Of a stretch of DNA of 64,000 nt, positions 3,249 through 20,193 are shown piece after piece. The translations under genes were made by a program, and so were the position numbers. Numbering within the stretch: the stretch's first letter is position 1; the number at the start of each line of letters is the position of its first letter. The DNA comes from an archaeon (GTDB lineage Archaea; Iainarchaeota; Iainarchaeia; Iainarchaeales; JAAZKV01): positions 678,876-742,875 of the forward strand of contig JBAZUY010000001.1 in assembly GCA_041661245.1 (NCBI GenBank), read 5' to 3'. The notes under the pieces are model-generated. The model searched no databases and had not been told where the DNA came from. It saw only the letters and a program-made list of their open reading frames with translations.

Positions 3249-3270
3249 ACCCTATTTAGCGCTAAAAAGC

Positions 3271-3337: not shown

Positions 3338-3362
3338 CCCTAAAGAAACTAATTTCTATTAC

Positions 3363-4808
3363 ATGTATTCTCATTCTGAAGAACTAGGCGAACGCGATGA
3401 AAGCGGGTTTTTTGCAGTAATTGACAAAATCGCCTTGGAAGTAAAAAAAAGAGATGATTTTGTTGTTGTATTTCATTATGATGCTGATGGTTGTGCAAGC
3501 GGGGCGATTGCAGTTAAGGCGCTTGAGAGAGAAGGGAAAAAGGTTGCAACTCTTTGTTTAAAACAACTTTACAAAGAAAATATTCCTCAAATCACTGCTC
3601 TAGGAAAAAATTATTTATTTGTTGATTTTGGTTCAGGACAACTTGATTACTTAAAACAAGAATTTAATGATGATTTTTTTGTACTTGATCATCACCAACC
3701 CTGCTTAGTTGATGGAAAAGTATTAGCACACAAATTTCATGCAAACCCCTTATTGTTTGGGATTAATGGGGGAACTGAACTTAGCGGGGCAGGAGTAACC
3801 TTCTTTTTTGCTAATGCATTAAATGAAAAAAATAAAGATTTAAGTGTGCTTGCAATTGTTGGAGCGTGCGGAGACATGCAAGAATCACGCGGAGCGCTTG
3901 AAGGATTAAACAGAAAAATAATGCAAATCGCTGAGGAAGAAAAACTTTTGTCCGTGAAAAAAGATTTGCGTTTATTTGGAAGAATATCTCGCCCATTAGT
4001 TTCTTTTCTTTGTTTTTCATCAAATCCAATTTTGCCCCAACTAACTGCAAACGAAGAAAATTGTGTTGCGTTCATTAAAGGATTAGGCATTCCTCTAAAA
4101 GATCCTTTTACGGAAAGATACTTGTCTTATGAAGATCTTTCTCTTGATCAAAAACGTTCGCTTTCCTCTGCACTAATAATGCACTTAAGTAATTATGGTG
4201 TTGAAGAATGGAAAATAAAAGAATTAATTGGGGAAGTTTATACCCTTGAAAAAGAAAAAGAAAAAAGTCCGCTTCGTGATGCAAAAGAATTTGCAACCGC
4301 ACTTAATTCTGCAGGCAGACACAAGCAACCAAATGTTGCGCTAAATGTTTGTATGGGGGATAGAAATCCAAGCGGAGAGTATGGAAATATTATTGCGTTG
4401 CTTGATGAACACCGAGCAGCTCTACGTAATGGAATAGAGTTTATTCACAATCACGGAATCTCAGAAAGAAAAACTTTTTATTTTTTTGATGCAAAAGATC
4501 AAATAGAAGAATCCTTAGTTGGAATAATTGCTGGAATGCTTTACGGTTCAGTTATTCAAGAAAATAAACCAATTATTGCTTTAGCAAGAAATAGTGACGG
4601 CACAGTAAAAGCAAGCGGGAGAGGAACAAGCGCTTTACTTAGAAGGGGATTAAACATTGGGGCTGCACTAAAAGAAATTGGATTGGTTATTCCTGGTGTT
4701 GAAGGAGGGGGACACAAAATTGCAGCTGGTGCAAAAATCCCTTCAGATAAAGTTGAAGAATTTTTAGACTTACTTGAAAAAAAATTTGAAAGTCAACTAA
4801 AAAACTAG
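3363..4808 (+). CDS. recJ: DHH/DHHA1 phosphoesterase, archaeal RecJ/GAN (Cdc45-like) nuclease family
   Basis: DHH-family motifs are present: VVFHYDADGCASG, FVDFGSG, FVLDHHQP, GACGDM and the DHHA1 motif GGGHKIAAGA. Confidence 0.8.
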   Translation: MYSHSEELGERDESGFFAVIDKIALEVKKRDDFVVVFHYDADGCASGAIAVKALEREGKKVATLCLKQLYKENIPQITALGKNYLFVDFGSGQLDYLKQEFNDDFFVLDHHQPCLVDGKVLAHKFHANPLLFGINGGTELSGAGVTFFFANALNEKNKDLSVLAIVGACGDMQESRGALEGLNRKIMQIAEEEKLLSVKKDLRLFGRISRPLVSFLCFSSNPILPQLTANEENCVAFIKGLGIPLKDPFTERYLSYEDLSLDQKRSLSSALIMHLSNYGVEEWKIKELIGEVYTLEKEKEKSPLRDAKEFATALNSAGRHKQPNVALNVCMGDRNPSGEYGNIIALLDEHRAALRNGIEFIHNHGISERKTFYFFDAKDQIEESLVGIIAGMLYGSVIQENKPIIALARNSDGTVKASGRGTSALLRRGLNIGAALKEIGLVIPGVEGGGHKIAAGAKIPSDKVEEFLDLLEKKFESQLKN

Positions 4809-4835
4809 CGTTAGTTATTAAAATTAAACTTGAAC

Positions 4836-5585
4836 TCATTCTCCAAGCATTTTCCTCATAGTAATAATTTTTAACATTTTATTGTTTACTCCATCAATAG
4901 TAATTATTCGGGGTGTAACAAAATTTGCATCAAGCCCTGGCACGGGTTTTAATGGGGGTTCAACAGGTTCTAAGATTCCTTGATCTATTAGTTTTTTTGA
5001 TGGGTCCGCTGCATGGGAAACGTGTTCAGCGCAAGTCCACCAACTGTCAATGTCCCAATTCACCCTGCGTTTAATTCCGAGGGCTTTGTTTAGTTCATTA
5101 ATTCCATACGATAATAAAAGTGGGGTATCATATCTTCCTTTGATACGGTTAATGTTCCTTAGGAATGCTTCCATTTGTTTTGGGGTTGCATTTTCCCAAC
5201 GAAGAATTGCATACACAATTCCTTTTTTGTGAGCTTCTTTAAATGGGCGGGTTATTCCTGCGCGTCCTTTTCTAAAATCTCTTAGCAGTAGTTCATTGTT
5301 TGCTCCGCGTCCAACAAAAACCCCTACATGGCTATATGGGGATCCATTGGCGTTTGCAAGGCCTCTACTAATCCAGCTTCTTGTATCAATTGAAGCCAAG
5401 ATATCTCCTGCTTTCACTAAATGCAGTGCAGGTAATGTTGTGTTTTCAGAAAGTCTAAGTAGTCCTTTTCTATTTCTGCTTCGAATGATGCTTCTAATTT
5501 TTTCTAATCTTTTTTCTTTACTTTGCAAAGGCACCTGTCCGGCCTTTCTTTTAAGGTCATCAACAACTCTTTTCATTTTTTGCAT
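4836..5585 (-). CDS. Permuted papain-fold (YiiX/C92-like) putative amidase/peptidase with a basic N-terminal extension
   Basis: GDILASID..(x)..SPYSHVGVFVG followed late by WWTCAEHVSHA, giving the His-before-Cys order typical of the permuted NlpC/P60-like family. The N-terminus is KRKAGQ..KEKRLEKIRSIIRSRNRK. Confidence 0.45.
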   Translation of the reverse strand: MQKMKRVVDDLKRKAGQVPLQSKEKRLEKIRSIIRSRNRKGLLRLSENTTLPALHLVKAGDILASIDTRSWISRGLANANGSPYSHVGVFVGRGANNELLLRDFRKGRAGITRPFKEAHKKGIVYAILRWENATPKQMEAFLRNINRIKGRYDTPLLLSYGINELNKALGIKRRVNWDIDSWWTCAEHVSHAADPSKKLIDQGILEPVEPPLKPVPGLDANFVTPRIITIDGVNNKMLKIITMRKMLGE

Positions 5586-5638
5586 ATTAATCTCTACATA
5601 TTAAGTGAATTTAAATTAAATGCTATGGGGGAAAGGAG

Positions 5639-7168
5639 TTAATCCACTGCTTGAATTATTCCCTTTTTCTTTAATTGCTGTTCAAGTGTAACAAGTTCTT
5701 TTTGAACTGAATTAGTTAAGTTAGTTGCAACTTTAGTCGGAATACTCCTTTTAGCAAGTTTGTAATTAATTATTTGAAGTTCCAGTTCAAGGAGGTTTTT
5801 GCTGAGTGTGAGTTCATTTGCTCCTACAAGTTTTCCTAAAAATTCTTCCTCAATTAATTTTAGTTTTGCCTGTTTCTGGATTGAATTCTTTTCCAGTTCT
5901 TCAACAAGTTCAAACAAAACATCCTCGGTAATTTCGCGCTTGTAAAATTTTCTATTTAGATCAGTCAACCGGGTAGTTGTATCGCTTAGTTCACTAAACA
6001 AATTTACAAATTCAGTTTCTTTCCCTTTTAATGAAAAGAAAACTGTTGCGCTAGTTTCAATTGCTTTTTTTGTTAACGCATTCAAAAATTCACTTGTTTT
6101 TTCTGCACCGTTTTCGATTAAAAGTGGGCGAATTCCTTCAAGTAATATGATTGGGGCATTAGCTTTTTCCATGAATGAAAAAATGGATCTACTTAGAATA
6201 TCTATTTCTTTTGGGTTCATTTGTCCTTCCCCCGCTTCTGCACTATCGCTAATCCAAATAATGGGGGTCTTTGGCAAAGAATATATTTTTCGTACTTGCT
6301 CGGGGAAAGTAGTTGAAACAAGCAATCCTTGTCTATCATGTTTTACAAGATTTGCAAAAATTCTAAATCCTCTTTTTCTGGCTTCGTTTTTTTCATCAAA
6401 AGAATAAACTTTGCCCCGCCCTGCAGAAAAAAGAACTTTTTCTTTACTGTTTTCTTCAGAAACCGGAGTAATAACAAAAATTTTGTGCTGAACTACCGCA
6501 TAACTGATAATTATGCATCCAATTAAAATCAAAATGCTTGTAATTTTTAGTTCTCCAAACCCAAGTGCCCTTAGGATGAATACATCGCAAGGCAAACCGA
6601 TGATTGATCCAATGAGGACTCCAATGAATACAAAAAATATATTCCTTTTTTCAGATTCAATATTTGATTTTAAATATTCAATAAACAAAGTGCTAAATGC
6701 AGCTGTTAAAAAAATAATTAAGTGTAGTACTGCGAGAGTGTAAATGCTTCCGTATTCAACAGAATTAACTCCTTGGTCAGAGATAACTATATTTTTTATG
6801 AAATCATTTGAGAAAAACATTAAATATATTAAAATTAACGGGATGATTAAAACAAAAAGTTTTGAAGACTCATTTTGAAAAATTGTTTTTCGAGATCTAG
6901 GAAAATTACTTGCAAATAAAAAAAACAATGCTGATAATAAAATAAATCCTGCCCAATAAGCATATATCGCGGTTCTTGCCGCCGGGATAGTTGTTGCTAA
7001 TTGAAAGAATAAATCTCCTGCAACGTGAAGTGTAACCGCAACCATGAACAAAAAATAATAAAATGCTGCAGGACTCTTAATTTTTTTAATCAAAATATAT
7101 AAGGCAAGTAATGCATTAGCAATTACTGAAATTACTAGCCCTGAAAACAGAAAAATATTCATTGCCAT
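5639..7168 (-). CDS. Membrane sensor-like protein: N-terminal ~7 TM region + DUF835-like domain + C-terminal coiled coil
   Basis: About 230 aa of repeated hydrophobic helices come first. They are followed by GLLVSTTFPEQVRKIYSLPKTPIIWISD...IILLEGIRPLLIENG, which matches my memory of the archaeal DUF835 pattern. The tail is coiled coil and contains FYKREITEDVLFELVEEL. Confidence 0.55.
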   Translation of the reverse strand: MAMNIFLFSGLVISVIANALLALYILIKKIKSPAAFYYFLFMVAVTLHVAGDLFFQLATTIPAARTAIYAYWAGFILLSALFFLFASNFPRSRKTIFQNESSKLFVLIIPLILIYLMFFSNDFIKNIVISDQGVNSVEYGSIYTLAVLHLIIFLTAAFSTLFIEYLKSNIESEKRNIFFVFIGVLIGSIIGLPCDVFILRALGFGELKITSILILIGCIIISYAVVQHKIFVITPVSEENSKEKVLFSAGRGKVYSFDEKNEARKRGFRIFANLVKHDRQGLLVSTTFPEQVRKIYSLPKTPIIWISDSAEAGEGQMNPKEIDILSRSIFSFMEKANAPIILLEGIRPLLIENGAEKTSEFLNALTKKAIETSATVFFSLKGKETEFVNLFSELSDTTTRLTDLNRKFYKREITEDVLFELVEELEKNSIQKQAKLKLIEEEFLGKLVGANELTLSKNLLELELQIINYKLAKRSIPTKVATNLTNSVQKELVTLEQQLKKKGIIQAVD

Positions 7169-7253
7169 ATAGTATGTATTCTAGTTTTTCTCTAATAAAA
7201 ACTTATTTAAAGGAAAAGCCCCTTCTATTTGCAGTAAAGTTGGGTGTTATTTA

Positions 7254-10200
7254 GTGAAAAAAAAAATAAATTATTTCCTTTTGGTAACTATCTTTTTATT
7301 TGTTTTTTCCACTGTTTTTTCGACAGCGTATACTCGTACGGTGGGGTTGCCTGCAGGGGATAGGAATTCTTTTTTTAATGATTTGACTCATAATTATAAT
7401 TTTCCAGGGTTCGTTGAACCGCGAGGGTCGGATTCAGCATATGTGCAATCGGCTTCAATTGATTGGAATAAGTCCTTGTTTTCTCTTCCAAATGGGAGTC
7501 AATTAACTGCTGACAATAACTTGCTTGGGTTGTGGGATGCAAATTTAATTTCAATTTGGCATTTAGAAGAAAATGATGGCGCCCTAATAGTAGATTCTAA
7601 AGGGGGAAATAATGGTAATGGGGGGAGTTCTCATAAAAGTGCAGGAATTAATGGAAACTATGCGCAATCTTTTAGAAGTGTGGATCTTGCTACGGTGAAC
7701 CTTGATGCTAAGGCAGTAAATTTTGCAGGGAATTATTCGGAAGGAACGGTATTGGCTTGGATAAAGACCGATAGTTACGCAGATCAATCTTTTTTTTCAA
7801 TTTCTTCTAATCGGTGGTTCAGGCTGGGGATTAACACCGGAACAATCTACTGGTCAGTTTATAATGGAAGTACGCAGCCGTTTTATTATTCTTCAAGAAA
7901 AGCGCTTTCGGATAATAGGTGGCACCAAATAGTATACACTGTGGATGCTACAGGAAATAAAATTTACATTGATGGTCAGTTTGATGAAGGATCTTTTACT
8001 TCGGGAGGATCTGCGGCATCTTCATATTTTTTTGATGATGTTCCTTATTCTGCAGGAGCAACAAAATTTAGGATAGGTAATTTTTATTGGTCCACAGACG
8101 GGCGGTATTTTGATGGAAACATTGATGAAGTAACAGTTTGGAATCGAGCTTTAACGCCGACTGAAATTCAAGCACTTTACTCGTTGCAATACCCAAAGCA
8201 ATATGATCAAAATTTGAAAGTATATTGGAAATTTAACGAACTTTCTTATGTTATGGCTGATGAAGCAAATGGAAATGGTGCTAATTGTTGGCATAGTTCT
8301 TCTAATAACTTGTCTTGTTTAAGTTATTTGTCTTCATTTATTGGCCCTCGGCAGGGGGGGTTGTTTGATACTAATGGCTCTTACACTAGCGGCCCGACTT
8401 GGACTGTTGGGGGGCCATCAAGTATTTCTTTAGATTATAATGATGGGTGGTCTGCAAGTTCTTGGGTGAATTTTTGGGGGATGCATGCTAGCGGGACATA
8501 TGGGGTTTTAGTTAATGGAAGAGATTCGTCAGATATTGCATACTCTTTAGGAGTGCAAGTATCTGGTGCTGCGGGGGCACAGTTGTTTGTACCTTATGTT
8601 AAAATAAGTAATTCAGTTGATGGCCCCAAGTATTGTTATGCAACAGGAGTAAATATTCCAATTTATCAGTGGCATCAGCTTTCAGGAACCTATGATGGGT
8701 CAAGATTGAAGATTTTTTATGATGGTAAATTGATTAATACTTGCGCCACTACATTTAGCCCCTGGAAAAATGTGTCAAGTCGAATTGAACAAGGAATTGA
8801 TGTGGCTTCAATTTATGGAATGGTTGAAGAAACTAAATTGTATTCTTATGCTTTGTCAGATCAACAAATGGGGGAAGATTTTAATAGAATAAAAAGTTCT
8901 CATTTTGTTGGGGCAATCCCAATCTATTCTCCAACCCTATCCTCTCTTCGTTGGGACTCCGCAAAAGTTAATTCCTCTACAAATTTTTCATTTGGAAAAG
9001 AAATTTTATCTACAGACACAAAGTATTTTGATCAAAATCTTAAGGCGCTTTATCACCTAAATTCTTCTCCACAAGATAGTTCTGGGAATGGATTTGATGC
9101 AAATTTATATGGCGAAGGTGATGAGTATGTCTCGGGGCTATGGGGTACGCAAGCTGTAAGCCTGGATGGAAATGATTCTTTATCAATAAACAGTATGAAC
9201 AACTTGCTTTGTGGGGCAACAAGCACGGGGAAGTTTAGTTGGAGTGGGTGGATAAAACCTGATTCGATTTGTAACTATAATCCTACTTGGTGTACTTTAT
9301 ATGGGTCGTCAGGATTTACAATACGTAACCATAGTTCCCAATCTCTTTATGTCTATAATGGATCAACAGGAATTTTTAGTACTACTCAACCCTTCAATCC
9401 AAATTATTGGACGCATGTTGTTTTTACCTACGGGGGAGGAGTACGCAAACTCTATATCAATGGCCAGTTAGTTTTAAACACGGTCGGGGCAATCACATTT
9501 AATAATTGCTCTTCCTATTACCCACAAATTGGCGCGCTTAACAGAGGGGACTTTTTTAGAGGGGATGTGGAGGAAATTGCGCTTTGGGATAAAGACTTGT
9601 CTTATGATGATGTTGTTGATTTATTTAGAAAAGGAGTATCAAGTCTTGATTTAAATTTTTATTCCTGCGCAGATTACAATTGTAATAATAAAACTGCGTC
9701 AGTATTTATTGCAGACGCAAACAATAACCAAGATTATTCTTTAGCACAACTTCCTGTTACAAACTATTTAGGGTATGACGCTTTTTTCAAAACCGCCCCC
9801 TCCTTTTCAGATTATAATTTTGGGTTTGGTGCGTATGGGGCTTTCCTAAAAAACGTTGTTGTCGATGCCTCTCCAGGAAATACAAACCCAATTATGAATT
9901 TTAATTTAGTTGGAACAGATAACGCAAAAGGGGCAATTAGCACAAAGAATGGAACTGTAACTTTGGACTTTGACGTATTTGATTTACAAAATGACAGACT
10001 TGATTTGAATGTATATTTGAGTAATAATTCAGACATTAATAATTTATCAAGTGACACACTTGTAATAACAGATCTTAATTTGACAAGCACTCAATGTTCA
10101 AGCATTACTTGGAACGTAACTTCCGCGCATTGTACTCTTGACATTAACACCCCGCTTGCAATTGATGCTCAGGCGAAATATGTTAAATTATTAGTGAGTG

Positions 10201-13200
10201 ATTTATCGACTGCGGGTGTTTTGACTGATTACAACGTTTCGTCTCCCTTTATCCTAAACAACGTTGGCCCGGTTTTGAGTTTTAATCTAATTGATTCTAA
10301 CGATGCAAAAGGAATTCTTCCAACAAAAAGTGGAACAGTTACAATTGATTTCAATGTTCAAGACCAAGGAAATGATGTGCTTGACTTGAATGTTTATTTG
10401 AGTAATAATAACTCTTCAGGAAATTTTACTGGCGACACAATAGCAATTAGCTCCTCAAATTTTGTTTCAACATATTGTGCTCCAAGTGCAGATTGGAGTA
10501 CAACTTCAGTAAAGTGCACTGTTCCGATTAACACTGCTTTGATTTCTGATGGAAGCACTAAATACATTAAACTGAAAGTTGCGGACAACACTTACAACAC
10601 TTATGATATCTCAAGTTCTTTTGCAATAAACAATATTGCACCAGTTGTGACATTCAATTTAATTGGAAGTTCAATTGCTACAGGGAGCATAACCCCAAAG
10701 AAAGAAATTATAACAATTGATTTTAACATTAATGATCCTGGAACAAGTTTTGAAGATTTGAATGTTTACCTTAGTAATAATAATAGTACTAGTGATCCGC
10801 TTGTTGCATTAGACACTATTGCAATCCAAGATCTAAATTTAACTTCACTAAATTGCTCAAGCGGAACTTGGGAAAATGGAAGTGTAAATTGTACTCTCGA
10901 CAGTAATACTTTCCTTACTACTGACGGGGTAACAAAATATATTAAATTAAAAATTAAAAATAATGTTCAACCTGCTGTGTTTAGTGTTTCAAGTGGATTT
11001 ACAATCGACAATACTTTCCCCGTAGTTACTTGGAATAATGTTTCAAACAATTGGAGAAGGCACAATAATGACATTAATCTTTCTTGTGCAGATGCAACAA
11101 CAAGTTGTTCTCAAGTCCGGTATCAAATAAACGGGGGCACTTGGGAAGTATATTCTGCCCCAGTTTCTCTTCCAGCAGATGGGAATTATTTAATTCAAAC
11201 AGATGCAAATGATTTACTTGGAAATCGATCAACTACCCAAGCATTTAACATATTAGTTGGTTTTAATGGAAATCTAAGGACTTATAATGACTTGAATAAT
11301 CCTGAGTCTTTCTTTAGTGAAAATGAAAAAGCTGAATTAGTTTATGATATGAATTTAGCGGTTTCTCCGAGAATACAATTGATTGATAGTAATGGCGTAA
11401 TTGTTGTAGATTCTGTGATGACAAACATTTCTCAAGATTCAACTTTTGGAAAAAATGATTTGAATACCTATTATTTTGATTTCAATTTAATTGGGGAATT
11501 CGGATGGTATGATGCAATTATTCAAAACCAATTGTTTTCAAAAGCATTTTTTAAATCAAGAACTTGGGTTGATAGGTACACGGATTATAACGGAGTTAAT
11601 TATCCTTTTAGTTTTGACCTAAACTTAACAGAACCAAATGTTACAGAAAGAAGATTTAGTGCAATTGACACAAATATTCATTTTAATTACAAAGCAAATC
11701 CTACCTCCATAAGAGTATTGGATTTTAAAGGATCAGTTTACAAAGAAGTTCCAAGTGAAGTGTACTTGCGAGTTTACTCTGGAAGTTTAATCACGGATGC
11801 AAGATTAGTTTTCCTTTCAACACTCTACCAAGGTCAGCAAAAAACATACGCTGTTTCTTATGCTTCCTCACAAATGCCAAGGAGTTATTCCGCAGATTTA
11901 AATTCTTCATTAATTGCGCCGTTAATAGTTGATTTCAATAACAGTGCATTTGAAGCAAAAGTAGATTTGTCAAATGGAGCAGTACTCTCCTCTATTAAAA
12001 GTTGGATTGGAAAAGGGAGTGATTTGAATAATGCTCTACTTACAAAAGCTCCACAAAGTTCTCTTGGGTCCTCAAGTTATTCAGATTTATTTTTGACAAA
12101 TTATTCTCTTGCCTCAAGCGGTCCGCTTGTGACAAAATTAAATGCGTATGGGCCAATGGGTTCGTTTGATTACAATGTAACATACACCACTTATGCAAAA
12201 TCAAAGTATATTTTATTTGATTCAAATGCAGTTTTCAACTCAGTTTCACAAAGAGATATTTACAATTTAGTAACAAGCGAACAGCATTTCCAAAAAGGAA
12301 TTTTTACTAAAAACACAAGTTATGATGGGGCTTATGCAGTAATTGATTTGAACAGTACTGGAAATAATTTATCTTTCACAGATCTCAATTTGATTAGTTT
12401 GACAAATTCAAAAACTCTTGATTCTTATTCTGAAGCATATCTTTTGAAAACTTCTTCAAAGCCTATGATTGATACGACAAGAATTCGTGAAGATGTAAAC
12501 TCAATATATATACAAAGAAGAATTGCTCCATCAGATATTGGGGGAGATACACTTGCATTAGGCGATTATTACTCTACAAAAACAGCAATAATAATTTCTA
12601 ATCCATTGGATTCCTTTGAAGATGTAAACAAAATTTATTTAGCACTAACAAACCCCTTACAAATAGTTACTGGACGAATAGTTACTAATGATTCTCAAAT
12701 TCCAACGCTTGGCGGGCAAGGATATTCTCCAGCTGATGCAAATGATTCAACTGATTTGAATTGTTACGCTGCGTTCTTTGATAATACTTTGTTAAGCCGA
12801 GTGGAAGTAAATATTACTGGCGCGGATTTAAATATTTTTGAATCCCAAGAATTTTTAGATCAAAATATAGTAAGTTCCTATGTAGTTGATTCAAACACTC
12901 TTAATTCTGGAAACGTTAATTGTACTTTTACAGCATATGATATTGCGGACAATAATATTACAACTTCTTTTTTAGTTTCTGTTGCGGATAAAACTCCCCC
13001 AGTTATTGAAAGTACCCTTTTGTCCCTTGATTCAAATGCGTTGCTAGATCCACAAAAAGACACAAACTTTGACGCAAATGTTACTGAATACTTAGGATTA
13101 CAAACAGTAGAGCTTTATACAAGGACAAGCGCTGACGGCAATAATTGGTCTGAATGGAGTATTAATTCAATGCAAAACGATTTGAACAATTCCTCATACA

Positions 13201-15425
13201 ATTATCATTACACTTATTTACTCACTACTGATTCAAACGAATTAATTTACCAATTCTTTGTTCACGCTGTTGACTTGAATGGAAATGATAGTAATTCTAG
13301 CGTAGAAACACATTATTCATTTTATGATTACACTTGGGAAGTTAGCCCCCAAGTTCTTCCCGCAGTTACTCAATCGCTTAACACCGTTGCTCAATTAGGT
13401 TCTATTAGCATAACTAACACTGGGGACAAACCTCTAACATTTAAACTTTCTACAAATTGGGAAAACAAATCTCAAATTTGGTTTTCTGGAGATGCAGAAA
13501 CATTAACTGGAAAAGTAGTAGGTCTTTCCCCAGGGGATTCTCAGACTTATCTACTTAGTGCAACCACAAAACTAACTGAAAGAAGTGATCCAATAATAAT
13601 TACTGTTGACCCCTATAATGCCCAAGCAATTCCTGATTCAAACACAGTTAACGCTACGCTTGTTTCACTTTCAAACGGTCCATTTATGTTAATAGAATGG
13701 ACAAAGACAAACCCTGCTGTTCGACAAGAAGATGAAAATGTTCTTTACACTGTAAAGTTATCCAATGCAGGAAACGCAGATGCGAATGAAATTATTATTG
13801 ATTGGAATTATCCATTTGATTGGACACTTACTGATGGAAACTCAGATGAAAATTTAAGTGAAACAATTTCAGTTGGATTAAACTTAAGTCGTTCATTAAT
13901 CTTTTCTATCCCTGCCGATGCAAATAATGTTACACAGATATTAACTTTCACAGCCGGATGTAACAGTGATGAAAACAAAACACAAACAAGTTCCACTACG
14001 ACAGTAGTTTATGATAAAACCGGTACTAGTACTGGGGGAAACAACAATAACAACAATGGCGGCGGCTCTGGCACTGGGGGCGGAGGGGGAGGCGGCGGAG
14101 GCAATACGGGCTCTGGAGGATTACCATTTGTTCCTGGGCAAGAAGACAAATTTTTCCAAACAAGTTCCTTCTTTGAACTTGTAAGAGGACAGGATAATAC
14201 GTTCCCAATTAAATTTACAAATCCTTTGGATAATAATTTGCAGAATATTCATTTGAGTGTTTCCGGAATCATTTCAAGATATTTAAAGTTAAAAGATGAA
14301 AACATTGCGCAACTTGATTCTAATCAAGAGTTTTCAACTGAAATAGAAATTGTTTCTCCAAAGTATTTCACGCCAGGAAAATATGCATTGGTGTTCACAA
14401 TTACTGGGGAGTTTATAGATCGATATAGAAGACCAACTAGTTTCATAGAGGAACGAACAATCAATCTCTTGGTTCATGATGTAAACGAATCAACTGCAAA
14501 CGAAATGTTTGCCCAAATGCAATCCTTCTTGACTGAATTGCAAAAAAATAATTACCGTGTAAATGATTTGCCATTTTTAGTTAAAGATGCTAACACTATG
14601 CTTGGCAAGAGAGACTTTGATGGAGTTGCAGAAAAATATATGTTAGCAAAGAAAGTATTCGATGATGCAACATTAGCAGCAAACCAGGCAACTAGTATTT
14701 CTGGATTAATTGGACTTGCAACAAGTAAAGGAATTGAAACTCCAAATACTGACAGACTGTTAGTTCTTGCACAACTTGCCTTCCAAAGAGGAGATTATGC
14801 TTTAGCGTTGTCAAGACTAAAGGAAGCAGAGTTGACTTATTCAATTGAAACAAAAGGAGAATTTAACTGGATAGTTTGGGCATTAGCAAATATTGATAAA
14901 ATAATTTTAATGCTTGTTTTGTTCATTGCTGCCGCTTACATGTTTAATTTAGGATTTACAATGCTAAGAATTGATTCAAAACTAAAGTCTTCCTTGGCTG
15001 AAAATACTTTATTGCTTTCAATGATTGCAGGGATACAAAAAAGAAGCTTTGTTGAAAACAAAATGAGTCTTAGTGAATATTACGATGCGTTAGCCCAATT
15101 TGAAGATAGAATAGCAAGCGTGTCCGAATCCATTGTGGATCTTACTACCCGAAAGAGCAATATGTTAAAATTTTCAAGACCTTCTACAAGGTTAAATCAG
15201 GAAAAGAGAAGTTTGCTTGATTTAATTAGGGACACTCAGCAACAGTACTTTAATTTCGGGTTAGTTGAAACTAGAATTTATCAAACGAAAGTAAAAAGTC
15301 TTACAAAAAGACTTACTGAGGTTGATGAAGAAATTGTTTCAAGCGATTTAAAGAAGACTCTTCGTATGAACGGAAGAGGTCCAAGTGTACTCTTTTGGAA
15401 GTTGTATTATTTTATTTTTAGGTGA
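7254..15425 (+). CDS. Giant surface protein (2723 aa): signal peptide, three LamG/concanavalin-A-like modules, Ig-like repeats, Gly/Asn linker, one C-terminal TM helix and a cytoplasmic coiled tail
   Basis: GTG start with signal peptide KKKINYFLLVTIFLFVFSTVFSTAYT. LamG_3-type endings are present: FDGNIDEVTVWNRALTPTEIQALY, VEETKLYSYALSDQQMGEDF and FRGDVEEIALWDKDLSYDDV. There are three ~124-aa tandem repeats and an Ig-like segment, QVRYQINGGTWEVYSAPVSLPADGNYLIQTDANDLLGN. The TM helix is IILMLVLFIAAAYMFNLGF, followed by a ~170-aa tail. Confidence 0.85.
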   Translation: MKKKINYFLLVTIFLFVFSTVFSTAYTRTVGLPAGDRNSFFNDLTHNYNFPGFVEPRGSDSAYVQSASIDWNKSLFSLPNGSQLTADNNLLGLWDANLISIWHLEENDGALIVDSKGGNNGNGGSSHKSAGINGNYAQSFRSVDLATVNLDAKAVNFAGNYSEGTVLAWIKTDSYADQSFFSISSNRWFRLGINTGTIYWSVYNGSTQPFYYSSRKALSDNRWHQIVYTVDATGNKIYIDGQFDEGSFTSGGSAASSYFFDDVPYSAGATKFRIGNFYWSTDGRYFDGNIDEVTVWNRALTPTEIQALYSLQYPKQYDQNLKVYWKFNELSYVMADEANGNGANCWHSSSNNLSCLSYLSSFIGPRQGGLFDTNGSYTSGPTWTVGGPSSISLDYNDGWSASSWVNFWGMHASGTYGVLVNGRDSSDIAYSLGVQVSGAAGAQLFVPYVKISNSVDGPKYCYATGVNIPIYQWHQLSGTYDGSRLKIFYDGKLINTCATTFSPWKNVSSRIEQGIDVASIYGMVEETKLYSYALSDQQMGEDFNRIKSSHFVGAIPIYSPTLSSLRWDSAKVNSSTNFSFGKEILSTDTKYFDQNLKALYHLNSSPQDSSGNGFDANLYGEGDEYVSGLWGTQAVSLDGNDSLSINSMNNLLCGATSTGKFSWSGWIKPDSICNYNPTWCTLYGSSGFTIRNHSSQSLYVYNGSTGIFSTTQPFNPNYWTHVVFTYGGGVRKLYINGQLVLNTVGAITFNNCSSYYPQIGALNRGDFFRGDVEEIALWDKDLSYDDVVDLFRKGVSSLDLNFYSCADYNCNNKTASVFIADANNNQDYSLAQLPVTNYLGYDAFFKTAPSFSDYNFGFGAYGAFLKNVVVDASPGNTNPIMNFNLVGTDNAKGAISTKNGTVTLDFDVFDLQNDRLDLNVYLSNNSDINNLSSDTLVITDLNLTSTQCSSITWNVTSAHCTLDINTPLAIDAQAKYVKLLVSDLSTAGVLTDYNVSSPFILNNVGPVLSFNLIDSNDAKGILPTKSGTVTIDFNVQDQGNDVLDLNVYLSNNNSSGNFTGDTIAISSSNFVSTYCAPSADWSTTSVKCTVPINTALISDGSTKYIKLKVADNTYNTYDISSSFAINNIAPVVTFNLIGSSIATGSITPKKEIITIDFNINDPGTSFEDLNVYLSNNNSTSDPLVALDTIAIQDLNLTSLNCSSGTWENGSVNCTLDSNTFLTTDGVTKYIKLKIKNNVQPAVFSVSSGFTIDNTFPVVTWNNVSNNWRRHNNDINLSCADATTSCSQVRYQINGGTWEVYSAPVSLPADGNYLIQTDANDLLGNRSTTQAFNILVGFNGNLRTYNDLNNPESFFSENEKAELVYDMNLAVSPRIQLIDSNGVIVVDSVMTNISQDSTFGKNDLNTYYFDFNLIGEFGWYDAIIQNQLFSKAFFKSRTWVDRYTDYNGVNYPFSFDLNLTEPNVTERRFSAIDTNIHFNYKANPTSIRVLDFKGSVYKEVPSEVYLRVYSGSLITDARLVFLSTLYQGQQKTYAVSYASSQMPRSYSADLNSSLIAPLIVDFNNSAFEAKVDLSNGAVLSSIKSWIGKGSDLNNALLTKAPQSSLGSSSYSDLFLTNYSLASSGPLVTKLNAYGPMGSFDYNVTYTTYAKSKYILFDSNAVFNSVSQRDIYNLVTSEQHFQKGIFTKNTSYDGAYAVIDLNSTGNNLSFTDLNLISLTNSKTLDSYSEAYLLKTSSKPMIDTTRIREDVNSIYIQRRIAPSDIGGDTLALGDYYSTKTAIIISNPLDSFEDVNKIYLALTNPLQIVTGRIVTNDSQIPTLGGQGYSPADANDSTDLNCYAAFFDNTLLSRVEVNITGADLNIFESQEFLDQNIVSSYVVDSNTLNSGNVNCTFTAYDIADNNITTSFLVSVADKTPPVIESTLLSLDSNALLDPQKDTNFDANVTEYLGLQTVELYTRTSADGNNWSEWSINSMQNDLNNSSYNYHYTYLLTTDSNELIYQFFVHAVDLNGNDSNSSVETHYSFYDYTWEVSPQVLPAVTQSLNTVAQLGSISITNTGDKPLTFKLSTNWENKSQIWFSGDAETLTGKVVGLSPGDSQTYLLSATTKLTERSDPIIITVDPYNAQAIPDSNTVNATLVSLSNGPFMLIEWTKTNPAVRQEDENVLYTVKLSNAGNADANEIIIDWNYPFDWTLTDGNSDENLSETISVGLNLSRSLIFSIPADANNVTQILTFTAGCNSDENKTQTSSTTTVVYDKTGTSTGGNNNNNNGGGSGTGGGGGGGGGNTGSGGLPFVPGQEDKFFQTSSFFELVRGQDNTFPIKFTNPLDNNLQNIHLSVSGIISRYLKLKDENIAQLDSNQEFSTEIEIVSPKYFTPGKYALVFTITGEFIDRYRRPTSFIEERTINLLVHDVNESTANEMFAQMQSFLTELQKNNYRVNDLPFLVKDANTMLGKRDFDGVAEKYMLAKKVFDDATLAANQATSISGLIGLATSKGIETPNTDRLLVLAQLAFQRGDYALALSRLKEAELTYSIETKGEFNWIVWALANIDKIILMLVLFIAAAYMFNLGFTMLRIDSKLKSSLAENTLLLSMIAGIQKRSFVENKMSLSEYYDALAQFEDRIASVSESIVDLTTRKSNMLKFSRPSTRLNQEKRSLLDLIRDTQQQYFNFGLVETRIYQTKVKSLTKRLTEVDEEIVSSDLKKTLRMNGRGPSVLFWKLYYFIFR
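9885..11010 (+). repeat. Three tandem ~124-aa (about 372-bp) domain repeats inside the giant gene
   Basis: The units start near 9885, 10256 and 10629. Shared protein pattern: P(V/I)..FNL(V/I)....A.G....K.G.VT(L/I)DF.V.D......DLNVYLSNN...(x)..KY(V/I)KL(L/K)V. The DNA is conserved only in patches, for example GA(C/T)TTGAATGT(T/A)TA. Confidence 0.8.
14034..14120 (+). repeat. Low-complexity Gly/Asn linker (GGNNNNNNGGGSGTGGGGGGGGGNTGSGG), locally GC-rich with G-runs
   Basis: Read directly from the sequence: ggg gga aac aac aat aac aac aat ggc ggc ggc tct ggc act ggg ggc gga ggg gga ggc ggc gga ggc. Confidence 0.9.
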
Positions 15426-16306
15426 TGGATTTGAATAAAAAAAATATTCTGTTGTTAGCATTGCTGCTTCTCTTTTGCGTTTACTCTTTCGCGCTGGATG
15501 CAAATATTTATTCTTCTCAAATTCAGGCTGAAAAGGACAAAGTGGCTGCGTTTGGAGTAAGTATTTCTTCTATGAAAGAAAATGGGTTCACGGTTACAAG
15601 AATGCTTGATGAGTTATCCATTTTGCGTCAAACAGCCGAAAATAATATTTACAAAATTGAAAACAACCAATTACCTGATTTTGAAACATTTAATGCCCGT
15701 GCAGATGCGTTGGATAAAATTTTGATTGAAGCCCAACAAATCAAAGATGAGTTGGTTGCCCTCAAGACAACAATAGACGGACTCAAGGGAACTATTGACA
15801 TAACTCCATTAACCGAAATGCGGCTTGAAGCAGAAAAGGAATTTGCGGATGAACGATATGAGTATGCAATAAAACAAATTGATGCTACTTATGAAAAAGT
15901 GAGTGAATTGCAAGGAATCCAAGCCAAAGCTAATGCAGCATATGACGCAACACGAAGAAGTGTTTTGGGTTTTATTTCAGAGAATTGGGGATATATTTTG
16001 ATTGTGGTTTTGATTCCAGTGATAGGGTATTTAATTTTTAGAAAAAAAATAACTCTGTACCGATTGAATAAGCGAATTGAAGAAGTGCGGTTTGAAGAGG
16101 GGGTTTTGAAGGATGAAATAAAAAAAGCACAGGAATTATATTTTGTTGGAGGGAAACTTCCAGAAGCGGAATATTCTATAAAAGTGAAAATGTATGGGGA
16201 AAAAATTAGAGACTTGAATAGACTGGCAGCAGTTTTTGAAGAAAAAAAAGAAGAAATTCTCCAAGGGTCTATGAAATCTGAAGAGAAGAAACCTTTAAAT
16301 AAATAG
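15422..16306 (+). CDS. Bitopic membrane coiled-coil protein (294 aa), translationally coupled to the giant gene
   Basis: The start overlaps the giant gene stop (GTGATG, with ATG at 15425). Signal peptide ILLLALLLLFCVYSFA, an extracellular helical region, TM helix WGYILIVVLIPVIGYLIF, and a cytoplasmic tail containing ELYFVGGKLPEAEYSIKVKMYGEKIRDL. Confidence 0.7.
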   Translation: MMDLNKKNILLLALLLLFCVYSFALDANIYSSQIQAEKDKVAAFGVSISSMKENGFTVTRMLDELSILRQTAENNIYKIENNQLPDFETFNARADALDKILIEAQQIKDELVALKTTIDGLKGTIDITPLTEMRLEAEKEFADERYEYAIKQIDATYEKVSELQGIQAKANAAYDATRRSVLGFISENWGYILIVVLIPVIGYLIFRKKITLYRLNKRIEEVRFEEGVLKDEIKKAQELYFVGGKLPEAEYSIKVKMYGEKIRDLNRLAAVFEEKKEEILQGSMKSEEKKPLNK

Positions 16307-16322
16307 GAATAGTTGATATGAC

Positions 16323-17108
16323 ATGGACAAAACAGACGTACAATCAAAACGAGAATATTTTATGCCACAAGTGCAAGGCTTAAACGGATTATTTAGTAAA
16401 GGAATCCCGATTGGCTCAGCAGTAATAATTGAAGGGGGGCCAGGTTCAGGAAAAACCTTATTTTGCTTGCAAGCTTGTGTGGATGCATGCGAGCAAGGCA
16501 AAAAAGTTCTTTTTATGAGTTTTGAAGAACCGGAAAGAAATTTACGAAGCCACTTAAACATGTTCAATTTTGATTCAGTACAATATGAAAAAAAAGGACT
16601 CTTAAGAATAAAAAGATTTAATGCTTTAGATATTGCAAGAAGTGTTGAAGCACTATTAAGTGAAGCAAAAAAGGAACTGCTAATTGATGTGCAACCAATT
16701 CTGATTCCTCAAGATTTCCAACCAGACTTAGTGTTTATTGATTCATTGACCTCAATTTCTTCAGCATTTAGTGGAGAATCAAGCAGATTTAGAGTATATA
16801 TGGAACAATTATTTCGTTACCTTGAATCTCACAACATTACTTCATTCTTAATCATGGAAACTCCACACCCAACTCACTTAGGACAAGTTGTTGCAGGGAT
16901 TGACCAAGCGGTGTCCTTCCTTTCTGATGGAATTATTGTAATTTACAATGTGTTTTATGAAAACGGAAGAAGAGGAAGAGCTATAGAAGCTCTAAAAATG
17001 CGTGGGGAAGATATTAATAGAAAAATAGTTGAACTAGAAATAAAAGATAAAAAAGGAATAATAGTATACCCTGACAAACCATTGAAAGGGAAATATACTT
17101 TAACTTAA
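16323..17108 (+). CDS. Single-domain KaiC/RecA-superfamily ATPase
   Basis: Walker A VIIEGGPGSGKTLFCLQ and Walker B PDLVFIDSLT. The length and the C-terminal ALKMRGEDINRKIVELEI are typical of archaeal KaiC-like proteins. Confidence 0.8.
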   Translation: MDKTDVQSKREYFMPQVQGLNGLFSKGIPIGSAVIIEGGPGSGKTLFCLQACVDACEQGKKVLFMSFEEPERNLRSHLNMFNFDSVQYEKKGLLRIKRFNALDIARSVEALLSEAKKELLIDVQPILIPQDFQPDLVFIDSLTSISSAFSGESSRFRVYMEQLFRYLESHNITSFLIMETPHPTHLGQVVAGIDQAVSFLSDGIIVIYNVFYENGRRGRAIEALKMRGEDINRKIVELEIKDKKGIIVYPDKPLKGKYTLT

Positions 17109-17182: not shown

Positions 17183-18277
17183 ATGGGATACAAAATAAGT
17201 GAAGCAGACAGCAAAATGGAAATTAAAGACTTCTTAAAAGCAAAAGTCCCTGAGGTTGAGAAAGAAATAGAAAAATACATTCCTAGAAAAGCTAGTAAAG
17301 AATGGATAGAGCAAGCACTTGGAAAAACTGTTTTTGAATTAGATTTAGAAGCATATACAAAAGGAGTAAATGCACCAATTTGGGATTTACTTGACAGAGG
17401 GGGAAAAAGATTTCGCCCAGTAATGACTTGTATTGTCAGCGAAGCAGTTGGGGGAAAATGGGAAGATGGAATGAAATTATCTCCAATGGTAGAACTAATC
17501 CACAATGGAACCCTAATGAGTGATGATGTGGAAGATGATAGTGTTGCAAGAAGAGGAAAGCCTTGTGTTCATAAAATATTTGGAGTAGATACTGCAGTAA
17601 ACACAGGGGCAATAATGTATTTTTGGCCATTAATGAAAATCAAAAATAATGAATTCAAACTAAGTGAAGAAAAAAGAAACGCGATTTATGATTTGTATGT
17701 TACTGAAATGGTTCGTGTATCAAGCGGACAAGCATGGGATATTGAATGGCACCACGGAGGATACACTCCAAATGAAAAACAATACCTTAACATGTGCTTA
17801 TGTAAAACAGGAGTATTAACTAAATTTGCATGCCAACTCGGAGCAATAGCTGGGGGAGCAAGCAAAAAACAATACGAAGCCTTAGGTGAATTTGGTCAAA
17901 TTGTTGGAGTAGGATTTCAAATACAAGATGATATACTTGAACTAACAGAAACTAGCTTCAAAGAAAAAAAAGGAAGTATTGGCGGAGATATTCACGAAGG
18001 AAAAAGAACTTTAATTGTAATACGAACTTTTGAAAAAGCGAACCCCAAGGATAAAAAAAGATTAGTCGAAATTCTTGATTCCCACACAACGGATGAAAAA
18101 GTAATTCAAGAAGCACTAGACATCATAAACAAATACGACGGAATCAAATATGCAAAAAGCGTTGCTGACAAAATGGTTGAAAATGCTTGGGCAAAAATAA
18201 ACAAAGCTTTGCCCGAAAGCAATGCAAAAGCCCTGCTAAAGAAATTTGCAGAACACTTAGTTGAAAGAAAAATTTGA
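17183..18277 (+). CDS. idsA: Short-chain trans-prenyl diphosphate synthase (GGPP synthase-like)
   Basis: First Asp-rich motif LIHNGTLMSDDVEDDSVARRGKP and second motif GFQIQDDILEL. I prefer ATG 17183, preceded by AAGGTGA, over the GTG at 17126 used in the track. Confidence 0.85.
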   Translation: MGYKISEADSKMEIKDFLKAKVPEVEKEIEKYIPRKASKEWIEQALGKTVFELDLEAYTKGVNAPIWDLLDRGGKRFRPVMTCIVSEAVGGKWEDGMKLSPMVELIHNGTLMSDDVEDDSVARRGKPCVHKIFGVDTAVNTGAIMYFWPLMKIKNNEFKLSEEKRNAIYDLYVTEMVRVSSGQAWDIEWHHGGYTPNEKQYLNMCLCKTGVLTKFACQLGAIAGGASKKQYEALGEFGQIVGVGFQIQDDILELTETSFKEKKGSIGGDIHEGKRTLIVIRTFEKANPKDKKRLVEILDSHTTDEKVIQEALDIINKYDGIKYAKSVADKMVENAWAKINKALPESNAKALLKKFAEHLVERKI

Positions 18278-18311
18278 ATAAAATGGAAAATTAATTGGAA
18301 AAAAGGTTTTT

Positions 18312-19052
18312 ATGAAAAATTGGGCGAATATGAAAGGTGGCGCGAGAAAGAAACTAATTGGTCTCTTTGAAAAAGTGAAAGGTTCAACAATTGGAAAAGC
18401 AACTTTTTTTACTGAATCTCCACTTGGAAGGCTTCGTGCAGTTAAACCGAAGAGAGATCCCTCAAAAAAAAGAGCAAGAGATGTGCGAATACAAAGAAAA
18501 GTGCTTGCCCGAATGGGGGTGCCAACAAAACAAGCAAACAATGTAATTTGGTGGTATAGATTAAGGCGAATTTCAGAGATTGCAACAAGTGGAGGGATTT
18601 GTACTTCAAATGCGGGGAAAGTAATTTTGGATTTTATGAAACAAAACAAGAGCGCGTATTTTGCTGGCATGAAGTTTAAAACAATTACAGAAAAGCGACA
18701 AATGCTTCAATCCATTAACGGGGCTATTGCCATTCTTGAGGAAAATATAGAAAAAAATTATCATTTTTATCGGGATGAAATTGCGCAAGGAATTGGTACA
18801 AAAGAAATTCTTCAAGAACAAATTGAACATGAGCAAATGCTAGCTGAATTTAATGAACGCTTAGTAGTAAAAAGACCAAAACTTAATAGTCCTGTAATTA
18901 TGGTGTTGCCTTCAGTTTTTTTACTTGCCGCAGACATGGCAAATTTTAGAATAAAACAAGTCCTTGAAAAAAAACAATCATTTTTCGAAGAGCAAGTAGC
19001 TAAAGAGCATGAGGCCTTTGAAAGAATGCGGGATATGCCTTCTGTGAATTAG
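18312..19052 (+). CDS. Hypothetical basic protein (246 aa) between the prenyltransferase and IPP isomerase genes
   Basis: Long ORF with no recognised motif. The N-terminal third is rich in Lys/Arg (GGARKK, KPKRDPSKKRARDVRIQRK). Confidence 0.55.
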   Translation: MKNWANMKGGARKKLIGLFEKVKGSTIGKATFFTESPLGRLRAVKPKRDPSKKRARDVRIQRKVLARMGVPTKQANNVIWWYRLRRISEIATSGGICTSNAGKVILDFMKQNKSAYFAGMKFKTITEKRQMLQSINGAIAILEENIEKNYHFYRDEIAQGIGTKEILQEQIEHEQMLAEFNERLVVKRPKLNSPVIMVLPSVFLLAADMANFRIKQVLEKKQSFFEEQVAKEHEAFERMRDMPSVN

Positions 19053-19128
19053 GTTAATATATTGATAAAACATAATAATTAATATAATGAAAAAGTAGGA
19101 TATGGTTAAGTTAAAGGTAGTGATTTTT

Positions 19129-20193
19129 ATGCCATCGATTATAGAAAAAAGAAAAGCAGACCACATAAAGCTATGCGCTACAAAAGATGTTGCCTTTAAA
19201 GACAAAACTACTCTTTTGGAAGAAGTAGAACTAAATTACAAATCTTTACCTGAATTAAATCTTCGCGAAATTGATTTAAGTACTGAGTTTTTAGGAAAAA
19301 AGTTTTCTTTTCCTTTCATTGCATCAGCCATCACTGGTGGGGCACAAGTATCAAAAAAAATAAACAAAGATATTGCAATTGCAGCTCAAGAAGTTGGAGC
19401 AGGAATGGGTTTGGGAAGTATTCGCGCAATGATACAACAGCCCTCTTTAATAGAAACCTATTTTGTTCGTGATGTTGCCCCAGACATATTTTTAGCAGGA
19501 AATATTGGAGTAGCTCAATTAAAACAATTTACTCCTGAACAACTAAACGAAGCATTAACTGCGCTTGAAGTAAATGCGCTTGCAATTCACTTAAACTCAG
19601 CGCAAGAAGCAGTACAAGCAGAAGGGGACGCTGACTTTACAGGCCTTGTTGCAAAAATCGCAGAGTTTTCTGACAAAATAACTGTTCCAGTTTATGTAAA
19701 AGAAGTAGGACACGGAATAAGTTACGATGTTGCTCTGGCATTAAAAGAAACAAAAATAAAAGCAATTGATGTACAAGGGGCAGGCGGAACAAGTTGGACA
19801 ATGGTTGATGCACTAAGACACAAAGATGGATTCGGTTTACCATTTAGAGATTTTGGATTGCCAACTGCTGTTTCCATAATTGAAGTAAAACACGCATTAC
19901 ACGTTGCAACAACTAATTCCACTACAAGCAAAAAAATAATTGCGTCTGGAGGAATAAGAAACGGACTTGAAGCAGTAAAAGCAATAGTACTTGGCGCAGA
20001 CATGGTTGGAAATGCAATGCCAATTTTAAAAGCCCAACAAAAAAATGGTTCAATAGGGGTTGCTAATTATTTAACTAATTTTAAACGAGAAATGGAAATA
20101 GCATCCTTCCTAATTGGTTGTCAAAACCTAAAAGAATTACACGAAGAAAAACCAATTTTGTTTGGAAAACTAAGACAATGGGTAGAAGAATAA
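19129..20193 (+). CDS. fni: Isopentenyl-diphosphate delta-isomerase, type 2 (FMN-dependent)
   Basis: IEKRKADHIKL, FPFIASAITGG, VKEVGHGIS and IASGGIRNGLE are typical of IDI-2. ATG 19129 is preceded by AAGGTAGTGA. Confidence 0.85.
   Translation: MPSIIEKRKADHIKLCATKDVAFKDKTTLLEEVELNYKSLPELNLREIDLSTEFLGKKFSFPFIASAITGGAQVSKKINKDIAIAAQEVGAGMGLGSIRAMIQQPSLIETYFVRDVAPDIFLAGNIGVAQLKQFTPEQLNEALTALEVNALAIHLNSAQEAVQAEGDADFTGLVAKIAEFSDKITVPVYVKEVGHGISYDVALALKETKIKAIDVQGAGGTSWTMVDALRHKDGFGLPFRDFGLPTAVSIIEVKHALHVATTNSTTSKKIIASGGIRNGLEAVKAIVLGADMVGNAMPILKAQQKNGSIGVANYLTNFKREMEIASFLIGCQNLKELHEEKPILFGKLRQWVEE

Follow-up and report, generated by a model that had tools for sequence, protein, structure and literature searches.

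By what means DPANN archaea fasten to their hosts and pass signals through their own envelope is still an open question, and the surface proteins of these organisms are almost all unannotated. The question takes concrete form at one locus in the metagenome-assembled genome of a member of the Iainarchaeota (GenBank assembly GCA_041661245.1, contig JBAZUY010000001.1, positions 678,876 to 742,875; this 64,000-nucleotide stretch is hereafter called the window), where the gene for a giant, lectin-bearing surface protein (the giant) is followed by genes for a small membrane-anchored protein (the partner) and a single-domain KaiC-like ATPase, and where a multi-transmembrane (TM) protein with a DUF835 domain (the sensor) is encoded divergently upstream. 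An original prediction, made from the DNA letters and their translations, proposed that all four genes constitute an ATPase-controlled, sensor-linked surface-adhesion module in which a shared cytoplasmic motif is the docking site. Which of these genes belong together, and what might they do? We find that the giant, the partner and the KaiC-like ATPase are a gene module conserved across DPANN archaea and that the sensor lies outside it; we regard the finding as a KaiC-like ATPase-centered membrane module, with a real chance of something more distinctive. The principal features of the locus, the genes taken from open reading frame (ORF) calls, are as follows.

5639–7168, minus strand: sensor gene, 509 aa, with a 7TM (HisKA_7TM) region, DUF835 and a coiled coil (ORF call, Pfam)
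7169–7253, no strand: divergent spacer between sensor and giant, 85 bp, AT-rich, whose TATA-like TTTAAA precedes the GTG start of the giant by about 40 nt
7254–15425, plus strand: giant surface protein gene, 2723 aa, GTG start
15425–16306, plus strand: partner gene, 293 aa from ATG (294 aa if read from the GTG at 15422)
16323–17108, plus strand: single-domain KaiC-like (RecA-superfamily) ATPase gene, 261 aa

The four ORFs lie where the original prediction had placed them, and Pfam agrees with its domain assignments: HisKA_7TM (E 7.9e-16) and DUF835 (PF05763, E 2.6e-17; 63.3 bits against a cut-off of 33.1) in the sensor, three Laminin_G_3 (LamG) domains in the giant, and KaiC (PF06745, E 1.9e-39; 135.8 bits against a cut-off of 26.6) in the ATPase. 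The coupling of giant and partner through TGATG (15423–15427; context aggTGATGgat, 15420–15430), by which the TGA stop of the giant overlaps the ATG of the partner, is present as described, and ORF calls place a giant stop/partner start overlap in several other loci as well. The gap of 16 nt between the partner stop and the KaiC-like gene is likewise as claimed; the divergent spacer is 85 bp long, not 86 bp. A public record holds the exact partner protein with the ATG start, a 293-aa product. The TTTAAA-bearing spacer may serve as a promoter. The window is AT-rich (G+C ~35%), and no tRNA or Rfam family was found in it.

A Three-Gene Module Conserved across DPANN Archaea

A scan seeded with the partner and limited to one genome per GTDB species yielded 12 loci (L014–L025) from Iainarchaeota, Woesearchaeota, Pacearchaeota (one complete 711-kb genome), Aenigmatarchaeota and Micrarchaeota, and in all 12 of these loci, spanning five DPANN phyla, the giant, the partner and the KaiC-like gene are adjacent (tblastn, ORF maps). 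The C-terminus of the giant, in proteins of up to 3314 aa, lies directly 5' of the partner wherever upstream sequence is present, with the exception of L017, where the giant gene sits downstream of the ATPase. The ATPase gene itself is co-directional downstream in five loci (L014–L017, L025), convergent downstream in six (L018, L020–L024) and divergent just upstream of the giant in L019. On metagenome contigs the three genes stand in a row in L004, L009 and L011; L007 starts at the partner and L006 ends at it.

An independent test came from a metagenome scan seeded with the ATPase alignment, which returned 80 loci. The partner and/or the giant C-terminus is present in 46 of the 80, directly upstream on the same strand in 40 of these 46, and among loci with at least 2.5 kb on both flanks the proportion reaches 17 of 19. 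There are exceptions: at L037 an ATPase gene truncated at its 5' end stands right beside a DHH gene, a joint deletion having removed the giant, the partner and the Walker A end (4585–6657: the DHH gene, then a KaiC-like ORF without Walker A), and at L059 the ATPase gives way to a small insert and then to a giant N-terminus that runs off the contig. Elsewhere, L013 retains a decayed giant remnant (P0027, 8687–10996) without partner or ATPase. The module has decayed as a unit in L013 and L037. Both loci also carry, on the opposite strand, a TM-anchored protein of ~1250 aa that is apparently coiled-coil by sequence. Two further variants, the related contig L079 (described below) and P0194, a 452-aa LamG-KaiC chimera lacking ~26 N-terminal ATPase residues, could be real deletions or assembly artefacts.

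Taken together, the partner-seeded and ATPase-seeded loci therefore show an adjacency that is kept in three orientations and five phyla while the other neighbors change. All-against-all clustering of every ORF in 20 loci found no other family shared beyond close relatives. A 736-aa protein that recurs in L004 and L006 was considered as a fourth component and rejected: it has no homolog in the window, the copy in L006 falls into the cluster of the giants, and that in L004 is an unrelated singleton. A defense-system reading was also rejected, PADLOC giving weak P-loop matches only. The check that the original prediction proposed, whether homologs of the partner and the KaiC-like protein sit beside giants in other genomes, thus came out in favor of the trio. 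Its four-gene module stands for the giant, partner and ATPase, whose order is kept in five DPANN phyla, and fails for the sensor.

The Sensor Is a Lineage-Specific Neighbor

That all four genes form one system, with the 7TM-DUF835 sensor as an integral input of the ATPase-controlled adhesion module, is improbable on the distribution of the sensor. The gene is divergently adjacent to the giant in the window and in L001 (the same strain as the window), and L079 (1–5795) keeps two sensor copies and a homolog of a neighboring 249-aa gene, followed by a 189-aa N-terminal remnant of the giant and then the ATPase. Among 105 loci (786 kb), however, a phmmer search with the sensor matched only L001 and L079, so the sensor, which 102 of the 104 other loci lack, was rejected as a conserved member of the module. 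Since L014 and L016, the nearest genomes, have the giant immediately after the DHH gene, the sensor and its 249-aa neighbor make up a lineage-specific insertion outside the conserved module. The motif shared by the giant and partner tails is not in the sensor tail either: the original prediction had pointed to a related element there (FYKREITEDVLFELVEEL), and none of three motif hidden Markov models (HMMs) matches it at E<=10.

In favor of a connection, DUF835 has been classed as an inactivated KaiC-like domain (iKaiC; Galperin et al. 2018, citing Makarova et al. 2017; PMC5847659) which makes binding to an active KaiC-like ATPase plausible, and with it a functional tie between sensor and ATPase in this lineage. 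The sensor is not a histidine kinase, since only HisKA_7TM and DUF835 were detected by Pfam, with no HisKA or HATPase_c domain, and no GxxxxGK[ST] is visible on reading its residues 264–381.

The 249-aa protein (4836–5585, minus strand) is encoded directly downstream of the sensor on the same strand and has no Pfam, NCBIfam or PADLOC match. Its pattern SPYSHVGVF...WWTCAEH presumably recalls permuted papain-like amidases.

The ATPase Is the Most Conserved Part of the Module

Its motifs mark the ATPase as catalytically intact, and no other part of the module comes near it in conservation. The Walker A sequence GGPGSGKT (16434–16457, plus strand), the catalytic Glu pair SFEE, the Walker B Asp D140 and KMRG are invariant in 17 orthologs, as are 92 of its 261 residues across 17 loci, and identity across DPANN phyla is 57–87% as against 25–56% for the partner (tblastn). 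KaiC chains in the PDB match it at E 1e-25 to 8.7e-31. Among the database candidates examined, 1314 proteins match at E<=1e-30; the best 120 matches are all at least 65% identical, and those of the 120 with a phylum-level name are all DPANN. None of the NCBIfam equivalog cut-offs (KaiC, ArlH, RadB, archaeal KaiC-type models) is reached. Identity with circadian KaiC was rejected on the single domain (261 aa) and on scores of 93.7 bits against a cut-off of 408 (NF006799) and 51.4 against 546 (TIGR02655); identity with ArlH was rejected at NF052589 as well (43.6 bits, cut-off 215), and arlI/arlJ are not at the window locus.

Nor does the gene travel with its other neighbor. The original prediction had allowed that the KaiC-like gene might belong transcriptionally with the downstream prenyltransferase only; the ATPase and the polyprenyl synthase (ATG at 17183) are separated by 74 bp containing a TATA-like TTTAATATA, and the synthase is a neighbor in Iainarchaeota only, so an operon of the two was rejected.

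A different explanation holds that the ATPase is an unrelated housekeeping protein, serving RadB-/RadC-like DNA repair or general signaling, and that its adjacency is inherited synteny. The very high conservation of the 120 best matches is typical of core functions, Sulfolobus SSO2452 is among the structural relatives, and one locus, L012, has the anchor and the partner without the ATPase. We nevertheless consider this explanation quite unlikely: adjacency persists in three orientations and five phyla while every other neighbor changes, and deletion variants lose or truncate the ATPase along with the giant and the partner.

A Predicted Helical Hairpin Shared by the Cytoplasmic Tails

What could connect a cytoplasmic ATPase with the two surface proteins is suggested by a motif in their tails.

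14988–15155, plus strand: giant tail motif copy 1 (aa 2579–2634), predicted helical hairpin (16-ortholog alignment, hhalign; AlphaFold 2 (AF2) turn at ENKMS)
15189–15356, plus strand: giant tail motif copy 2 (aa 2646–2701), predicted helical hairpin, the copy closest to that of the partner (hhalign; hmmsearch iE 0.003; BLASTP E 0.008)
16082–16249, plus strand: partner tail motif (aa 220–275), predicted helical hairpin and most conserved region of the partner

By ortholog alignments the unit is ~55 aa long and occurs twice in each giant tail and once in each partner tail, with a core of approximately E-x2-[LV]L-x2-[IL]-x3-Q-x2-[YC]F-x2-[GK]-x-[ILM]-x3-[EY]Y-x3-h-x2-[YF]-x2-[RK]-h. In the partner motif, E224, V227, L228, K229, E231, A235, Q236, F240, E247, Y250, K253, I261, R262 and N265 are invariant among 17 homologs. 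The gapless alignment of giant and partner in the original prediction has 11 of 50 positions identical, and in single-pair BLASTP against the partner copy 1 is not significant (E 1.3) and copy 2 is marginal (E 0.008–0.018). Profile–profile comparison with hhalign, using 16–17 orthologs per profile, relates the tails in that same register (copy 1 versus partner, P 8.6e-7; copy 2 versus partner, P 4.9e-11) and recovers the predicted second copy in the giant tail (copy 1 versus copy 2, P 1e-9), so that the motif is significant at the profile level (P 4.9e-11 to 8.6e-7), the slices compared having been cut around the Q-x3-F anchor and thus being not fully independent of the pattern.

Two further searches free the homology from this caveat. 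When all 527 six-frame ORFs of the window were scanned, an HMM of the partner motif had the giant tail as its sole non-self match (E 1e-4) and an HMM of the giant tail likewise matched, itself aside, nothing but the partner (E 1.3e-3); in tblastn, the partner tail matches giant tails in L019 (E 3e-5) and L023 (E 4e-5). By these profile and cross-locus comparisons, the two giant copies and the partner copy are homologous.

The original prediction also likened the motif to SHOCT. The likeness lies in a short helical element after a TM helix with a G-x-[ILM]-x-x-x-E-Y-like core; the present unit is a two-helix hairpin of ~55 aa and is longer than SHOCT. The assignment was rejected: two Pfam scans at E<=10, covering the three tails (the partner scanned whole) and 10 motif peptides from several phyla, gave no SHOCT (PF09851) match, a negative limited by the HMMER filters, to which very weak matches may be lost.

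The Partner Is a Paralog of the Giant's Anchor

The resemblance between giant and partner extends beyond the tail. Two features of the partner are needed here.

15425–15493, plus strand: partner signal peptide
15986–16039, plus strand: partner TM helix

The partner is bitopic and all-helical and has no Pfam match. AF2, run on an alignment of 17 homologs (pLDDT 84.7), predicts a signal-peptide helix, five ectodomain helices, a TM helix (188–204) and a cytoplasmic hairpin (H206–242, turn, H247–280), a topology that matches the AF2 model of the giant C-terminus. Because an HMM of the C-terminal 340 aa of the giant matches partner proteins along almost the entire length of the model (E 1e-6 to 5e-19), the partner is best described as a paralog of the giant's entire anchor module, beyond the tail alone. 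A word-indexed protein search found 20 partner homologs at 37–69% identity, and the partner profile, run against 1.84 billion cluster representatives, matched 965 at E<1e-3 and 263 at E<1e-30; the C-termini of proteins of 1200–3500 aa are among the matches. A fold search of the partner model against the PDB gave no match at E<=0.001 and generic helical bundles only.

A Variable Lectin Head on a Conserved Stalk and Anchor

Behind its N-terminal signal peptide the giant has a variable head of lectin and Ig-like domains, then a conserved stalk and, at the C-terminus, an anchor module; its orthologs measure 1968–3314 aa (20 loci).

7734–9614, plus strand: three Laminin_G_3 (LamG/ConA-like lectin) domains in the variable head (aa 161–306, 391–538, 639–787; Pfam)
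11064–14423, plus strand: conserved stalk (aa 1271–2390), with an OmpL47-type barrel, an NPCBM_assoc-like domain and tandem Ig-like sandwiches (NCBIfam, Pfam, AF2, Foldseek)
14424–15422, plus strand: C-terminal anchor module (aa 2391–2723), with a five-helix ectodomain, TM helix and cytoplasmic tail (AF2, tblastn)
14739–14867, plus strand: TPR-like hairpin within the five-helix ectodomain
14892–14966, plus strand: giant TM helix

The three lectin domains are well above the Pfam cut-off of 27.6 bits (81.4, 37.7 and 78.9 bits; E 9.6e-23, 2.9e-09 and 5.9e-22), and the NPCBM_assoc match is weak. In tblastn the N-terminal 1270 aa show weak similarity (25–32% identity) in Iainarchaeota and two Aenigmarchaeota loci and none detectable in the remaining DPANN phyla, the stalk is 38–42% identical within Iainarchaeota and 25–35% in other DPANN phyla, and the anchor module is 30–56% identical across all loci. 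For the last 583 aa, AF2 (pLDDT 74.5) predicts two Ig-like sandwiches, a Gly-rich linker, five ectodomain helices, the TM helix and, at the positions of motif copies 1 and 2, two cytoplasmic hairpins. Foldseek relates the C-terminus to generic tandem Ig-like folds only (RbmA, integrin calf domains, NCX calcium-binding domains).

The extreme C-terminus of Iainarchaeota giants (15387–15422 in the window) is a conserved aromatic/basic peptide with the consensus KYFWRLYYKIFK, in which the W and Y are invariant in the A3 alignment; Aenigmatarchaeota giants bear long Lys/Arg-rich extensions instead, and those of other phyla a short basic tail. A second giant gene follows the ATPase in L011 (3530–8263) and L014 (14298–20648).

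The architecture bears on whether giant and partner are instead a two-component S-layer of the SlaA/SlaB kind, the giant being the canopy, the partner the stalk and the ATPase an assembly or quality-control factor. In its order, a large protein and after it a small helical one with a TM anchor, the pair does resemble slaA-slaB; unknown SlaB-like anchors have been proposed for DPANN (bioRxiv 2021.04.28.441871, 2023.10.27.564410), and a DPANN-specific secreted protein is listed next to S-layer-like proteins (Makarova et al. 2019; PMC6393860). The giant, however, has its own TM anchor and a hypervariable, lectin-rich, adhesin-like head, some loci (L011, L014) encode two giants, no S-layer family of Pfam or NCBIfam was matched, and the S-layer proteins proposed for DPANN are ~1000 aa long and lack a C-terminal TM helix. 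We therefore give the S-layer explanation little credence.

A Possible Surface-to-Interior Switch

We hold it somewhat probable that the trio is a DPANN module in which giant and partner pair, the ATPase docks on the tail hairpins, and the whole acts as a switch between surface and interior. On this model the giant would be exported by the Sec pathway and held by its C-terminal TM helix, with its fast-evolving lectin and Ig-like head probably binding glycans of a host or substrate. The partner, translationally coupled and corresponding to a small paralog of the anchor alone (signal peptide, five-helix ectodomain, TM helix, one hairpin), may pair with the giant through the homologous helical and TM modules. 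Each giant–partner pair would thereby present three homologous hairpins to the cytoplasm, a platform that could recruit the KaiC-like ATPase. A precedent exists in ArlH, a KaiC-like protein that binds the single-TM protein ArlX by the latter's cytoplasmic domain (PMC8978795). We infer that the ATPase, assumed by analogy with its relatives to be a hexameric ring, docks on these hairpins and links the condition of the surface protein to a switch within the cell that depends on ATP or autophosphorylation. Signaling might run outside-in, reporting contact, or inside-out, controlling the clustering or conformation of the adhesin. The sensor, as a lineage-specific add-on, may feed the same ATPase through its inactivated KaiC-like domain.

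Several points weigh against this model. The contact between ATPase and tails is drawn by analogy, the pairing of giant and partner is deduced solely from paralogy and the start/stop overlap, and the evidence comes mostly from metagenome contigs and from sequence alone. The 57–87% identity of the ATPase across phyla is unusual for the partner of fast-evolving surface proteins and could reflect another core function. Moreover, L012, a Diapherotrites metagenome-assembled genome, encodes a short anchor protein and the partner with no ATPase at the locus.

A bolder version, to which we give a rather low probability, would make the module an integrin-like device: a lectin-headed giant and its anchor paralog would dock a KaiC-like ring through three hairpins, host contact would be turned into an ATP or phosphorylation switch, or the ring would drive adhesin clustering, and the device would lie at the core of the episymbiotic lifestyle across phyla. 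A SPEARE-like secretion or transfer conduit, in which the ATPase would drive transport through the giant or along it, is highly improbable: such a role has been assigned to giant proteins of DPANN that combine a membrane anchor with a cytoplasmic P-loop ATPase (PMC10266531), but there is no VirB4/TraG domain or polytopic channel component here, each protein has one TM helix, and KaiC-like ATPases are known as switches or timers and not as translocases of proteins across membranes.

The three-gene module is thus a testable candidate for a surface-to-interior link in tiny symbiotic DPANN archaea. It offers a handle that recurs across phyla, in which hypervariable lectin-bearing giants are linked to one of the most conserved cytoplasmic proteins of the loci, and the short conserved hairpin motif makes the docking idea directly testable. 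If true, it would provide the first defined client of an archaeal stand-alone KaiC-like ATPase outside the archaellum.

Genes Flanking the Module

Polyprenyl synthase, IDI2 and other mevalonate-pathway genes lie 3' of the module in Iainarchaeota loci only, where they make up a conserved syntenic block (17183–30578 in the window; also L012, L015 and L016) of polyprenyl synthase, type-2 IDI, HMG-CoA reductase, HMG-CoA synthase and thiolase. The polyprenyl synthase ORF of L014 (11635–14124) encodes 829 aa, with its two homologous parts ~1.36 kb apart, which suggests an intein; L012 (1–236) opens with an Intein_splicing fragment. A 769-aa protein encoded at 20274–22583 (plus strand) has a Laminin_G_3 domain (E 8.5e-22), through which it groups with the giants in the clustering, and a C-terminal C1q domain (E 1.5e-6). 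To our knowledge, C1q domains are unusual in archaea. Farther downstream, a co-directional cluster (31607–40344, plus strand) encodes a GT2 glycosyltransferase, three radical-SAM proteins (one with a B12-binding domain), a DegT-type aminotransferase and a PEP-utilizers_C-like protein, and may serve sugar modification or phosphonate synthesis for surface glycans.

Comparison with Known Systems

In the literature searched, no paper connects a KaiC-like ATPase with giant surface proteins of DPANN; the 2017 survey of KaiC proteins, which might mention such a neighborhood, lay outside that search. KaiC genes are found in type IV pilus-like clusters of some Nanohaloarchaeota (PMC9563170), and the DPANN cluster cls.004306 (NEQ255), a secreted protein whose gene often lies beside those of S-layer-like proteins (PMC6393860), may or may not correspond to the partner.

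The SlaA/SlaB pair of Sulfolobales resembles the present locus in that a large surface protein gene is followed by that of a smaller, helical, TM-anchored protein. Here, however, the giant carries a TM anchor and a cytoplasmic tail of its own, the partner is paralogous to that anchor, and no similarity to S-layer families was detected. Closer in scale is SPEARE of Nanohaloarchaeota, which likewise has a giant ectodomain, one TM anchor and a cytoplasmic P-loop ATPase and is thought to interact with the host (PMC10266531). SPEARE proteins, in contrast, are 5000–9400 aa long with a fused VirB4/TraG-like ATPase, whereas the present module has a separate KaiC-like protein, an anchor paralog and a shared tail motif. 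A SPEARE-type giant was accordingly rejected: no VirB4/TraG-like ATPase is fused after the TM helix, and the tail consists of 152 aa of helical hairpins in which no P-loop domain was detected.

The best precedent for the proposed docking is ArlH-ArlX of the crenarchaeal archaellum, where a KaiC-like ATPase sits on the cytoplasmic domain of a single-TM protein. It differs in that ArlX has no large ectodomain, the tails here are short hairpins, the ATPase scores 43.6 bits where the ArlH cut-off is 215, and arlI/arlJ are neither at the window locus nor conserved across loci, T2SSE/T2SSF occurring at L007 only. The type IV pilus-like genes of that locus (2759–6074; T2SSE and two T2SSF) lie ~1 kb downstream of the ATPase.

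More broadly, archaeal KaiC-like ATPases, including the single-domain PH0284/PH0186, have been proposed as signal-transduction hubs (Makarova, Galperin and Koonin 2017, to the extent that it is cited in PMC5847659). The present ATPase resembles these hub proteins in its single RecA/KaiC domain, its intact Walker A, Glu pair and Walker B, its position beside membrane proteins and the DUF835 protein nearby in this genome. It differs from them in that its subfamily is DPANN-wide and is tied to a giant and the paralog of that giant's anchor instead of to the usual sensor or output domains.

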